DNA of 64,000 bases, taken from contig CAVVXH010000001.1 of assembly GCA_963752155.1 (NCBI GenBank), forward strand, positions 32,001 through 96,000, in the 5' to 3' direction. The translations under genes were made by a program, and so were the position numbers. Source of the DNA: an uncultured Parachlamydiaceae bacterium (GTDB lineage: Bacteria > Chlamydiota > Chlamydiia > Chlamydiales > Parachlamydiaceae). Below the pieces are notes generated by a model. That model had not been told where the DNA came from and did no database searches. It saw nothing but the letters and a program-made list of their open reading frames with translations. Positions 11,759 through 60,912 of this stretch are shown here, piece after piece (position 1 is the stretch's first letter; each line of letters opens with the position of its first letter).

Positions 11759-11818
11759 CTTGTCCTTGCCTGTCGTCCTTGTTGTCCTTGCTGTCCTTGC
11801 CGTCCTTGCCGTCCTTGC
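11759..11818 (-). repeat. 9-bp tandem repeats (GTCCTTGCC-type) inverted relative to upstream set
   Basis: TGTCCTTGCC..GTCCTTGTT GTCCTTGCT GTCCTTGCC GTCCTTGCC GTCCTTGC. Confidence 0.85.
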
Positions 11819-16779: not shown

Positions 16780-16842
16780 CAGGAATTCCCACTAATTTTC
16801 GTGCCTGCGCACGCGGGCACGAAAGTTTAGCGGGAATTGCTG
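16780..16842. mobile_element. MITE family C with 9-bp target-site duplication
   Basis: CAGGAATTCCCACTAATTTTCGTGC..GCACGAAAGTTTAGCGGGAATTGCTG flanked by GATCGAACT/GCTCGAACT. Confidence 0.75.
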
Positions 16843-22038: not shown

Positions 22039-22195
22039 ATTTTTTCCTTTGGGTAATGCTAATATATGTTAGATTAGCATCTTATCGATTGTTAGTCAAT
22101 AAGTAAATGTTGTAAATGTTGGAAATGTTATGCTTGTTTATGTGAAAGATGGGGAGCTGAGTTAAAGGATAACGAGGATAACGAGGACAACAACA

Positions 22196-23139
22196 AGGCA
22201 AGGCAATTATTGTCATGTGATACTCTTTATTTTAACCTATCACTTATTACCTTGCCTTGTCGTCCTCACGATAAGAACGATAAGAACGATAAGAACGATA
22301 GGAACGATAGGAACGATAAGAACGATAGGAACGATAGGAACGATAAGAACGATAGGAACGATAAGAACGATAGGAACGATAGGAACGATAAGAACGATAA
22401 GAACGATAAGAACGATAGGAACGATAGGAACGATAAGAACGATAAGAACGATAAGAACGATAAGAACGATAGGAACGATAAGAACGATAAGAACGATAAG
22501 AACGATAGGAACGATAGGAACGATAAGAACGATAGGAACGATAATTGAATGAAGGTGGAGACATCATTGAACACTATAATGATGAACTCTCATCCAATCC
22601 GAAGAAGCGTTTCCTGAAGAGAGACTCTCCCGAAGGGAGGGCTACTTTGGAGAAAGCGATAACTTGAGGCACCCCTCAAGATATCCTTTCCCCTTTGGGG
22701 GGCCCTTCGGGAGAGAGAGTCTCTCTCCTTCGGGAAACGCTTCTTCGGGATTGGATGCAAACAATTTATTATAAATGATAGTTTACACAGTTTAATTTAA
22801 ACTTCCCTTCCTATCGTTTTTATCGTTTTTATCGTTTTTATCGTTCATATCCTTTTTATCGTTTTTATCGTTTTTATCGTTTTTATTGTTTTTATCATTC
22901 TTATCATTCTTATCGTTCTTATCGTTCTTATCGTTTTTATCGTTTTTATCATTCTTACCATTTTTATCATTCTTACCATTCTTACCATTCTTACCATTCT
23001 TACCATTCTTACCATTCTTATCATTCTTATCGTTGTATCGTGAGGACGGCAAGGACAACAAGGGCGAGAGGCAAGGCAATCATTGATATGTATTAGTCTT
23101 TATTTTAACCTATCACTTATTGCCTTGCATTTTCGTCCT
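22196..23139. repeat. Giant fold-back element 1: DR - (AACGATAAG/AGG)x~31 - structured core - inverted array x~26 - DR
   Basis: Forward array 22268-22544, core 22545-22808 with hairpin 22590-22758, reverse array ~22809-23040, 71-bp direct repeats 22196-22266 and 23069-23139. Confidence 0.95.
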
Positions 23140-23154
23140 TGCCGTCCTTTCTTT

Positions 23155-31185: not shown

Positions 31186-31251
31186 TAGCAATTCCCGCTA
31201 ATTTTCGTGCCCGCGTGCGTGCCCGTGTCCGAAAATTAGCGGGAATTGCTG
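31186..31251. mobile_element. MITE family C with perfect 9-bp target-site duplication
   Basis: TAGCAATTCCCGCTAATTTTCG..CGAAAATTAGCGGGAATTGCTG flanked by TTCTCCATC at 31177-31185 and 31252-31260. Confidence 0.85.
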
Positions 31252-36645: not shown

Positions 36646-36708
36646 CAGCAATTCCCGCTAAACTTTCGTGCGTGCGTGCCCCGTGCCCGAAAATTAGCGG
36701 GAGTTTCT
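36646..36708. mobile_element. MITE family C copy (right end degenerate)
   Basis: CAGCAATTCCCGCTAAACTTTCGTGC..CCGAAAATTAGCGGGAG. Confidence 0.75.
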
Positions 36709-36789
36709 TTTACGCTGGATATAATAGCATATTCAGCGTAAACTCATAAAAAAGAGGCATTCACGCTATATATAAGGTCTAAGTTAAAA

Positions 36790-42079: not shown

Positions 42080-42228
42080 AAAAATTAAACGCAAAGGCAC
42101 GAAGGCGCAAAGAGCACAAAGAGATCTTACGCGAAGAATTTTCATTTTTAAAAAAATAGGTGAATTTTATTTTACATGTAAGATCTCTTTGTGCTCTTTG
42201 CGCCTTCGTGCCTTTGCGTTTAATTTTT
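42080..42228. repeat. Perfect 51-bp inverted repeat built from 9-bp units (AAGGCACGA/AAGGCGCAA/AGAGCACAA)
   Basis: Arms 42080-42130 and 42178-42228 are exact reverse complements. Confidence 0.9.
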
Positions 42229-58342: not shown

Positions 58343-59494
58343 ATGAAGTATATTGCACGGGCTATAATCCCGCCAAAAGGGAGTTATTTTTTACTTGGTC
58401 CTCGAGGGACGGGCAAATCCACTTAGCTTTTACACCATTATCCAAATGCAGCTCGCATAGACTTATTGCTTGGAGAAGAAGAACGGCGCTACAGTAGCTA
58501 TCCCGAAAAAATTCGAAATATTGTGCAGGCAATGTCGCCAGGATCTGTGCTCGTCATCGACGAAATCCAACACGTGCCTCGTTTACTTCCAGAAATCCAT
58601 GCGTTAATTGAACAAAATACTCAGATTCAGTTTATTTTAACGGGTAGCAGTGCAAGAAAATTACGTCGCTCGGTCAGTGATCTTCTTGGTGGTAGAGCTT
58701 TGCTGCGCCAAATGGACCCTTTTCTTGCTTCGGAACTTGGTCATGAATTTTCTCTTGAAAGAGCTTTGCGCATTGGACTAATTCCTTTAATTTGGGAATC
58801 AACAGATCCCGAAGAAAGACTGCGCCATTATCTTCACTTATATTTGCGCGAAGAGGTCCAAGCTGAGGGATTGGTGCGTCAAATGGGTGATTTTTCTCGC
58901 TTTTTAGAAATTGCAAGTTTTTCTTATGGATCATTGTGGACCTCTACTGAAATTAGCCGAGATTGTCAAGTCAAACGTGCAACCGTCGATAATTATTTTA
59001 ATATACTTGAAGATCTTTTTTTGGCTTTTTCTCTTCCTGTGTTCACTCGTAGAGCTAAGCGTCGACTGATTGCACATCAAAAGTTTTATTTTTTCGATGT
59101 CGGTGTATATCGCGTTTTAAGGCCTCGTGGTGTTTTGGATAGCATGCAAGAAATTGAAGGTATGGCTTTAGAAGGCCTCGTAGCGCAACATTTGCGCACT
59201 TGGACTTCTATGCAACAAGAAACTCACTCCCTTTCTTTTTGGCGCACACAATCTAAGCTTGAAGTAGATTTTGTAATTTATGGCCCAAGGGGTTTTTGGG
59301 CAATTGAAGTTAAGCGTTCTACAAATATTTCTCTAAGCGATATTAAAGGGCTCTTAGCTTTTAAAGAAGAGTATCCTGAAGCTACCTGTTTCATTGTTGC
59401 TCCTGTAAAATTGCGGGAAGTATATCGAGATATTTTAGTTTTGCCGCTTGAAGAGTTTTTGCTTTCCCTTAGGCCTGAAAATACGCTTATTTAA
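58343..59494 (+). pseudogene. AAA_14 + DUF4143 ATPase with in-frame TAG at 58424-58426
   Basis: MKYIAR..FLLGPRGTGKST*LLHHYP..IDEIQ..LTGSSAR..KFYFFDVG..EVDFV..AIEVK. Confidence 0.85.
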
Positions 59495-59511
59495 TACCAA
59501 GCACAATCATC

Positions 59512-60791
59512 CAGAAAATTGCAGTAGAACAAGCTCAAAGTGCCCTGTGAGTTCGATATGTAGACGTAATCAACTATACAACGATAAGAACGATAAAGAC
59601 GATAGGAACGATAAGAACGATAAGAACGATTGGAACGATAAGAACGATTGGAACGATAAGAACGATTGGAACGATAAGAACGATTGGAACGATAAGAACG
59701 ATTGGAACGATAAGAACGATTGGAACGATAAGAACGATTGGAACGATAAGAACGATTGGAACGATAAGAACGATTGGAACGATAAGAACGATTGGAACGA
59801 TAAGAACGATAAGAACGATAGGAACGATAAGAACGATAAGAACGATAAGAACGATAGGAACGATAGGAACGATAGGAACGATAAGAACGATAGGAACGAT
59901 AAGAACGATAAGAACGATAAAAACGATAAGAACGTTAAGAACGATAGGAACGATAAGAACGATAAGAACGATAAGAACGATAGGAACGATAGGAACGATA
60001 AGAATGATAAGAACGATAAAAACGATAAAAACGATAGGAACGATAGGAACGATAAAAATTATAATTGAAGAAGGTGGTGACATCATTGAACATTTAGTCA
60101 TCGAAGATATCGAGACTGTCTATTTTTTTGGGAGTGTCTAGAATTTTGTGTAAATAAATCTTGAAGAGAGATGTAAAGCATCTCTCTTTTCAGATTATTT
60201 ACACAGGCCCTCCCAAGGCAAAGCGATATCTTGAGGGATGCCCCATGGGAGCAGGGTCCTTCGGAGAGGCATCCCTCAAGATATCGCTTTCTCAAAGTAG
60301 CACTCCCTTCGGGAGGCTGGCCCCCCTTCCAGAGACTCTCCCGAAGGGAAGGAGGGCTCTTCAACTTTCTTCAATTATCGTTCCTATCGTTCCTATCGTT
60401 TTTATCGTTCTTATCGTTTTTTATCGTTTTTATCGTTCTTATCGTTCTTATCGTTCTTATCGTTCTTATCGTTCTTATCGTTCTTATCGTTCTTATCGTT
60501 TTTATCGTTCCTATCGTTCCTATCGTTTTTATCGTTCTTATCGTTTTTATCGTTCCTATCGTTCCTATCGTTTTTATCGTTCCAATCGTTCTTATCGTTC
60601 CTATCGTTCTTATCGTTCCTATATCGTTCTTATCGTTTTTATCGTCTATACCGTTGATCTACAGTAGCAACAGAACGTGTCAAGCTGTGAACATCAATGA
60701 AATTGCAGTAAAACAAGCTCAAAGTATCCTGTGAGTTGGATATGTAGACGTGATCAACGATAAAAACGATAAAAATTAGCGGGAATTGCTG
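59512..60791. repeat. Giant fold-back element 2: DR - (AACGAT AAG/AGG/TGG)x~53 - structured core - inverted array x~30 - DR
   Basis: Forward array 59580-60062, core ~60063-60374, reverse array ~60375-60645, 59-bp direct repeats 59516-59574 and 60700-60758; ends in a family C MITE terminus. Confidence 0.95.
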
Positions 60792-60838
60792 ACAATCTTC
60801 TTGCGATTTTTTTTGTCAATACGGTATTCTCAAGCTTC

Positions 60839-60912
60839 GTTCTCGTAGCTCAGTAGGATAGAGCGGTTGCCTCCTAAGCAGCAGGTCGCGCGTTCGAATC
60901 GCGCCGAGGACA
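60839..60912 (+). tRNA. tRNA-Arg (CCT)
   Basis: Acceptor GTTCTCG/CGAGGAC, D arm AGCTCAGTAGGATAGAGC, anticodon loop CT-CCT-AA, T arm GTTCGAATC. Confidence 0.95.

Follow-up and report, generated by a model that had tools for sequence, protein, structure and literature searches.

In the repetitive extragenic palindrome (REP)/REPIN-RAYT system (REPIN, REP doublet forming a hairpin; RAYT, REP-associated tyrosine transposase, also named TnpA-REP), called ‘REPtron’, a nuclease- or transposase-type gene, present in one or few copies, is flanked by its own repeat in inverted orientation, and dozens of gene-less palindromes lie between other genes. RAYT proteins have the HUH/Y1 fold, their subfamilies have different repeats, and the repeat is a single palindrome of 20-40 bp. 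The eukaryotic Foldback (FB) transposons, found in Drosophila and others, have long inverted arms composed of short units in tandem, with higher-order periods; copies differ in arm length, and the loop is sometimes coding, often not. In Cyanobacteria, short tandemly repeated repetitive (STRR) sequences are intergenic runs of heptamer units, often arranged as inverted pairs that form hairpins, and one genome has several unit families. To our knowledge, a protein of the GxxExxY family and arms of tandem units are combined in none of REPIN/RAYT, miniature inverted-repeat transposable elements (MITEs), Foldback and STRR. Here, we study a stretch of 64,000 nt from an uncultured Parachlamydiaceae bacterium (assembly GCA_963752155.1, contig CAVVXH010000001.1, positions 32,001 to 96,000; hereafter the window) and, within it, element 2, an intergenic, gene-less locus of ~1.3 kb (59512-60791) that begins 18 nt past the stop codon of the upstream open reading frame (ORF). 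With a probability that we put at roughly 0.6, element 2 belongs, as a gene-less and rearranged copy, to a selfish foldback-repeat family built on GxxExxY cassettes, some of which are borne by a MITE; we infer that it has no host function.

The likeness to REPIN-RAYT lies in the few gene copies enclosed by their own inverted repeat, in the gene-less copies and in the subfamily-specific repeats. However, the protein has here a PD-(D/E)XK fold, with an activity predicted from sequence and model, and each arm consists of 3 to 57 tandem units of 8-9 bp instead of a REP palindrome. As in MITEs, the carrier of element 2 has terminal inverted repeats (TIRs), perfect 9-bp duplications, size classes, many copies and no transposase inside, but element 2 itself has one TIR terminus and consists mostly of inverted satellite arrays of another repeat system. 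Inverted arms of short tandem units, variable in length, are shared with the Foldback transposons; this is a likeness of architecture only, for which we claim no homology, the genome being here bacterial, the proteins different and the sequences unrelated. Compared to STRR, the unit has 8-9 nt instead of 7 nt and is linked to a specific gene family. A small nuclease gene inside a repeated target-like sequence, with many decayed copies, also recalls homing endonucleases, although neither intron nor intein is present here, the target would be a tandem array and cleavage is a prediction. Finally, compared to a GxxExxY cassette, element 2 has the cognate inverted arrays (AACGATNNN) but no GxxExxY gene, i.e., it is a gene-less derivative. 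In the literature, our searches on GxxExxY or PDDEXK_3/PF13366 found no treatment of flanking repeats or function, and those on STRR, Parachlamydiaceae repeats, bacterial foldbacks and chlamydial MITEs found no description of such a layout.

GxxExxY genes and their flanking repeats

The genome (3.13 Mb in 22 contigs, 38% G+C, chlamydia-like; assembly 80% complete) contains 80 AACGAT (AACGATAAG) arrays of up to 57 units, which form 35 pairs (28 convergent and 7 divergent, by a method based on CGAT spacing) on 13 contigs. One intact GxxExxY gene of the associated subfamily was found (C10:276677-277099; positions outside the window are given as contig:position), scoring 138.7 bits against TIGR04256 (GxxExxY) and 135.7 bits against PF13366. 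Its cassette (C10:276529-277353) has the same unit on both sides: the last unit (aacgATGGAAGAAGAC) makes the ATG, and the inverted array comes after the 3' tail. Using tblastn, 18 loci of this subfamily were recovered, i.e., the intact gene and 17 decayed copies, and an AACGAT array lies at most 400 bp away at 16 of them (the intact gene and 15 of the 17 decayed copies); at a further locus (C8:169333), one or two units per side were recognised on reading. Many cores of the convergent elements are such decayed copies of the gene. Moreover, GCACAAAGA units accompany a second GxxExxY subfamily (C4:110646 and C6:157307), which has 29-32% identity with the first gene; these units also form 41 gene-less convergent mini-foldbacks genome-wide. 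Because each of the two subfamilies has its own unit and its own gene-less copies, the sequences argue for a specific relation between protein and repeat, and these two subfamilies, each with a gene-less population, are the strongest argument for it.

The protein has an intact catalytic motif. The residues G30, E33 and Y36 (the GxxExxY motif) and the triad D72...E82-x-K84 are invariant in 25 sequences. An AlphaFold2 model of the protein (mean predicted local distance difference test, pLDDT, of 87.9) has Cas4 SSO0001 (E 4e-6), lambda exonuclease and archaeal Hjc resolvases as its closest structures, with TM-scores of 0.4-0.55, and a search of the PDB by sequence returned no relative at E <= 0.1. 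The predicted structure supports a minimal PD-(D/E)XK nuclease and indicates no particular substrate. A survey of PD-(D/E)XK proteins lists PDDEXK_3 as ‘Unknown’ (PMC3424549).

We examined 80 loci that encode relatives of the protein, mostly in metagenome-assembled genomes (MAGs) of Chlamydiota, together with Planctomycetota, Bacteroidota and others; 76 of these loci were testable. According to Tandem Repeats Finder (TRF), their layout consists of 3-4 units ending at the ATG and of reverse-complement units 20-65 nt after the stop codon. In an automated test, a start array with its reverse complement after the stop was detected at 30 of the 76 loci, vs. 2 of 285 shifted control placements, and since at least 13 of these 30 loci come from one MAG, they are not independent. 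The array unit, 8, 9 or 17 bp long, changes with the protein lineage: ACGAT units accompany proteins 71-84% identical to the query, ATGAT units those at 66-76%, CAGGATAAG units those at 50-62%, ACACGGATT or ACACAGATT units those at 44-51% and AAGACATA units those at 46-47%. At the level of sequence comparison, an exclusive link between unit and gene subfamily is shown, in this genome as in the others. The cassettes of other genomes lie in unrelated contexts and lack the MITE TIR. An AACGAT array and the 5' start of a GxxExxY gene are also found joined on one contig of a soil-metagenome run (loose end at 60386). A coding reason for the arrays was ruled out, the units of relatives being also of 8 bp and 17 bp and the arms being inverted and intergenic; since 8-, 9- and 17-bp units all occur, the period has no coding reason.

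Our library search returned 1363 proteins at E <= 1e-5, and contigs shorter than 5 kb contain 104 of the best 120 of these 1363 homologues; in two other genomes, arrays are found at contig ends. Both observations fit flanking repeats that break short-read assemblies, and because the arrays appear to have this effect, long arrays may be under-reported elsewhere.

Organisation of element 2

The features of element 2 and of element 1, another member of the same family in the window, are collected in Table 1. The initial annotation had described element 2 as lying beside tRNA-Arg, with ~53 forward units, a core, ~30 inverted units and a higher-order period of 18 bp, and this description was confirmed throughout (forward arm by TRF: period 18, 26.4 copies, 92% matches). 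Units 5-24 (59616-59795) are ten AACGATAAG-AACGATTGG dimers (AAG/TGG); outside this block, the forward arm is an irregular mix of AAG, AGG and AAA units, which over units 25-53 is aperiodic, again as annotated. The mirror match between the two arms is limited to the innermost units (AAA AGG AGG), and they differ elsewhere. A four-unit pattern of the repeat has 633 matches in this genome vs. 0 for the same pattern read backwards, so the repeat is not a product of chance. The only ORFs within element 2 are those imposed by the repeat composition. A CRISPR (clustered regularly interspaced short palindromic repeats) array is not what it contains, the units standing head-to-tail with no spacers, and in a search of the region against Rfam only the tRNA reached the gathering score, the other matches being sub-threshold hairpin look-alikes.

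Table 1. Positions in the window of the features of element 2, of its neighbouring tRNA gene and of element 1.
Feature	Positions	Strand	Basis or remark
Element 1, same family	22268-23034		forward arm 22268-22544, core, inverted arm 22808-23034
Candidate target-site duplication, left copy ACAATCATC	59503-59511		8/9 bases match 60792-60800
Left outer module, beta-type array border (right part of 113-bp module A)	59512-59581	+	begins CAG
Forward arm, 53 full units of AACGATNNN and one partial	59580-60055	+	unit reading, TRF
Core, 319 bp	60056-60374		hairpin-rich; whole core folds at z = -10.7
Junction module B (ATAATTGAAGAAGGTGGTGACATCATTGAACA...) with R-type continuation	60061-60112	+	20 genomic sites, BLAST copies
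Remnant of GxxExxY cassette 3' tail	60129-60168	+	87.5% over 40 nt vs. C10:276628-276664
AT-rich hairpin from inverted duplication of tail	60147-60205		sequence, DNA fold
GC-rich block, two strong hairpins	60210-60355		DNA fold
Right inner junction, short module B remnant ATAATTGAAGAAAGT	60364-60378	-	sequence
Inverted arm, ~30 units of TTATCGTTC	60375-60645	-	TRF period 9, 29.8 copies
Module A full length (alpha border, middle, beta border)	60646-60755	+	11 near-full genomic copies
Two forward units AACGATAAA	60756-60775	+	TRF
TIR-MITE family terminus, 20 nt, AAAATTAGCGGGAATTGCTG	60772-60791	-	match C1:92770-92791
Candidate target-site duplication, right copy ACAATCTTC	60792-60800		sequence
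tRNA-Arg(CCT)	60839-60912	+	47 nt beyond element 2; neighbour, outside element

Within the core, the tail remnant matches, with an E-value of 3.7e-5, a segment just downstream of the intact GxxExxY gene. Part of the GC-rich block (60266-60315) is present, inverted, in element 1, the only other place of the genome where the block was found; it was found in none of 40 relatives and matches no Rfam family. By eye, it has ~58% G+C in a genome of 38%; its counterpart in element 1 lies at 22620-22710, and its orientation relative to the arms is opposite in the two elements.

The arrays of the family are also bounded by fixed modules on their outer side. On the outside, the convergent elements are bordered by two conserved sequences, called alpha (TATACCGTTGATCTACAG...) and beta (...ATGTAGACGTAATCAACGATGCA), and module A is composed of alpha, a middle part and beta. 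Its near-full copies have 89-95% identity and are all placed with a minus array on one side and a plus array on the other, and all 7 divergent pairs enclose it. The beta-type border of element 2 also precedes forward arrays at C6:4968 and C22:7519, and a direct repeat of 74 nt (59508-59581 and 60692-60765; 86% identical), which is part of module A, flanks the arms. As for the cores of the convergent elements, they are variable, and one element is coreless, its arrays of 26 and 57 units abutting.

Genome-wide, 299 period-9 tandem repeats belong to several unit families. With TRF, the counts of which differ slightly from those based on CGAT spacing, the AACGATAAG family has 79 arrays (26 convergent and 8 divergent pairs), the AAGGACNNC family 84 arrays (29 inverted pairs, with short, varied loops) and the ACAGAGATC family 46 arrays (18 inverted pairs). 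In the window, AAGGACNNC arrays are found at 11774-11818 and on both sides of element 1 (22190-22267 and 23035-23150), where they form small foldbacks repeated directly over 71 nt. A fixed 65-nt hairpin (CTCTGTGTTCTCTGTGATCTCTGTG, loop, inverse) occurs as 18 pairs (e.g., C2:10313-10377 and C4:23249-23312), its A/T loop being found in both orientations among copies. AACGAT cassettes are nested between small AGGATAAGG foldbacks (e.g., C15:132380-132500 and C10:224390-224500), the units of which are similar to the CAGGATAAG units on either side of a GxxExxY gene of 62% identity in another genome (L062). One GCACAAAGA mini-foldback lies in the window (~42080-42228) and is nearly identical to the small foldbacks on either side of the divergent GxxExxY gene C6:157307-157687. 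Among the 201 genomes of the order, 5 have the four-unit pattern, and none of the 30 nearest relatives does; such counts, taken alone, overstate the spread of the family, because the AACGATAAG DNA pattern also occurs as coding sequence, i.e., as a K-N-D repeat near the end of TPR-type proteins, in two other chlamydial genomes (G176 and G037).

Two observations concern the neighbouring genes. The tRNA-Arg(CCT) gene stands beside gnd, with which it is co-oriented in this genome and in one relative (G003) and to which it is inverted in two others (G001 and G006). Genes for AAA_14 + DUF4143 ATPases adjoin AACGAT elements at two loci (58466-59494 in the window and C11:319857-321077), and similar ATPase genes recur beside MITE ends.

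Probable MITE carriage and competing explanations

The end points that the initial annotation gave to element 2 coincide with a CAG...CTG pair flanked by ACAATCATC and ACAATCTTC, and because a TIR terminus lies at 60791 and near-identical 9-nt repeats flank the whole, they are likely the borders of a MITE. At the left end, only CAG is kept, followed by module A sequence, so that we regard element 2 as a probable MITE insertion since stripped of most of its left TIR. By aligning the copies of module A with their flanks, a larger element of 911-987 bp was found, with the layout TIR-L-B'-(minus array)-A-(plus array)-B-R-TIR and ends that read CAGCAATTCCCGCTAATTTTCGTGCCCGTGCC. Four complete copies have both TIRs, of 30 nt or longer, and perfect 9-bp target duplications; since the unit number of their arrays varies, arrays change after insertion. 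Likewise, MITE copies that are 92-95% identical in module A have widely differing unit numbers. The TIR family has 169 ends genome-wide, most pairs being 54-160 bp apart, in size classes of 54-987 bp. In two MITE copies (C2:339626 and C10:13503), a cassette remnant with its own inverted array stands at the end of the plus array, a place that is ‘empty’ of any cassette remnant in six other copies. Small TIR-MITE copies are also seen in the window, at 16780-16842, 31186-31251 and 36646-36709.

The scenario that we favour takes as its basic unit a GxxExxY gene, with its predicted PD-(D/E)XK fold, enclosed by inverted runs in which a unit of 8-9 bp is repeated in tandem. These runs of the cassette would have expanded in this genome, to as many as 57 units, and the gene would have been lost from most copies. 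The ancestor of element 2 would have resided inside a non-autonomous TIR element making 9-bp target duplications, and this MITE would have brought it to its site upstream of tRNA-Arg. The nuclease may recognise its own unit or else the hairpin or cruciform of the arms; breaks made there might promote the copying of cassettes into other arrays, along with changes in array length and growth. The 18-bp block would then be a recent local amplification, by slippage or unequal exchange. A broader proposal, which we offer tentatively and at somewhat less than even odds, is that GxxExxY proteins are the maintenance or mobilising nucleases of a hitherto undescribed bacterial foldback class, in which the inverted ends would be runs of the protein's recognition unit and element 2 would be non-autonomous.

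Several observations weigh against this scenario. In element 2 itself, neither tblastn nor hidden Markov model (HMM) searches gave any match to a coding remnant of GxxExxY, tblastn for GxxExxY had no match on the whole contig of element 2, and the cassette-tail remnant is short (40 nt, 87.5%). The left TIR is gone and the flanking repeat agrees at 8 of 9 positions only, which leaves the MITE insertion unproven, and the nearest relatives are too distant to reveal an empty site. At the level of the family, the link between gene and unit is drawn from position and co-variation, and AAGGACNNC, the largest nonamer family by number of arrays (84), has no gene-bearing copy. In other genomes, the automated test found no matching inverted arrays at 46 of the 76 loci; many of these loci have arrays that lie outside the search windows or below the TRF threshold, and some may have none. 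No target duplication was seen there at the ends of simple cassettes. Finally, in one MAG, the cassette is enclosed in a larger repeat, with similarity over more than 120 bp upstream and more than 190 bp downstream, and may therefore move as a passenger.

The last point also enters into the explanation that survives best among the alternatives, i.e., a plain MITE with an internal minisatellite, in which mobility depends solely on a DDE-type transposase acting on the CAGCAATTCCCGCTAA... ends, the 9-bp arrays are an unstable satellite and the GxxExxY gene is a passenger. Besides that nested cassette, it has in its favour the 169 TIR ends with their 54-987 bp classes and perfect 9-bp duplications, as well as the family TIR in which element 2 ends. 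Yet, most convergent AACGAT elements are bordered by alpha/beta modules and lack the TIR, the gene is found elsewhere with 3-4 flanking units in unrelated contexts without TIR, and two gene subfamilies each have their own unit. Moreover, no transposase was found among the 132 ORFs neighbouring TIR ends (in an assembly 80% complete). On balance, we consider a plain MITE to be unlikely.

Alternatively, element 2 might be useful to its host, as a protein-binding platform or as a cruciform insulator or terminator between the AAA-ATPase gene and the promoter of tRNA-Arg, and both its intergenic position, 18 nt after a stop codon and 47 nt before the tRNA, and the folding of its core (z = -10.7) agree with such a role. 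We nevertheless deem this improbable: promoter- and terminator-like sites are not more frequent in element 2 than in shuffled sequence, unit numbers vary freely among copies, the tRNA-Arg locus of three relatives has no such element and the four-unit pattern is restricted to 5 of 201 genomes of the order, with none of the 30 nearest relatives. In the genomes of the same genus, gnd is only 74-79% identical, and their tRNA-Arg loci, which lack arrays, cannot be aligned base by base.

The initial annotation had itself read the junction between array and core as a fixed motif, suggestive of a defined site of initiation or termination rather than of random slippage; on this reading, the arrays would be laid down by a templated process that starts or stops at the motif. 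Both inner junctions do read ATAATTGAAGAA(G/A)GT, and the left one (ATAATTGAAGAAGGT, 60061-60075) continues with GGTGACATCATTGAACA, as in element 1, where the forward array is followed by ATAATTGAATGAAGGTGGAGACATCATTGAACA. The motif is also recurrent, the 29-nt sequence ATTGARGAAGGTGGTGACATCATTGAACA occurring at 20 genomic sites (<=6 mismatches), all 20 directly after AACGAT units. Its fixity, however, did not stand: it has two alternative continuations and is one of at least three types that occur at the inner junctions (56 in all) of the 28 convergent elements, the other recurrent types being the GxxExxY start (..cgATGGAAGAAGAC..) and the cassette tail (..AAAATTTGTGGAATAC..), and the coreless element has none. 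Nor is unit degeneracy polarised toward or away from the core, a possibility raised by the same annotation. Measured on 42 arrays, a unit departs from AACGATARR by 1.93 mismatches on average when it stands at the outer edge, by 1.79 at the inner edge and by 0.13 in mid-array, the edge values being perhaps somewhat inflated by the trimming rule for edge units. Variant units are found in local blocks, such as the block of 10 x 18 bp. Since the edges are degenerate and the interior uniform, since variants occur blockwise and since copies differ in unit number, amplification appears to be internal; the sequences point to fixed, inherited borders, between which units would be gained and lost by slippage or unequal exchange. 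With several junction types, with outer borders that are fixed as well, and with relatives in which borders of these kinds enclose no more than 3-4 units, a defined site of initiation or termination finds no support, and a templated process seems very improbable.

Two further results concern the junction module. In metagenome contigs of the Joint Genome Institute (JGI), the motif has 0 exact matches and its 20-nt core 8, each of them in unrelated, array-free coding sequence. Module B with its L continuation was considered as a decayed GxxExxY 5' end and rejected (profile comparison probability 0.1; frame not kept among copies).

Among public sequencing runs, none contains the stretch (best share of sampled words: 0.13), and four runs contain only array words, the tRNA and, in two of them, a piece of the upstream gene, leaving the TGG block and the core uncovered. 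That the low-complexity region is an artefact of assembly or base calling is hardly credible in view of 35 paired elements, spread over 13 contigs, in which the modules follow the same order, of the same architecture in independently assembled genomes and of array words on environmental contigs.

Meaning of the family

Element 2 itself is a decayed, gene-less member, and its interest lies in what the family shows, namely that bacteria can carry foldback-type repeats made of tandem units. The family accounts for a class of hypervariable repeats in intergenic DNA at which short-read assemblies of environmental chlamydiae break. Inversion, deletion and length change are likely to be concentrated in such arrays, which could be used as strain markers. 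For the protein, the relation proposed here provides a concrete, testable role for a widespread nuclease-fold family, given as ‘Unknown’ in the survey (PMC3424549). If true, GxxExxY proteins and their repeats would be a PD-(D/E)XK counterpart of RAYT-REPIN, with arrays the size of minisatellites, and a bacterial look-alike of the eukaryotic Foldback transposons.

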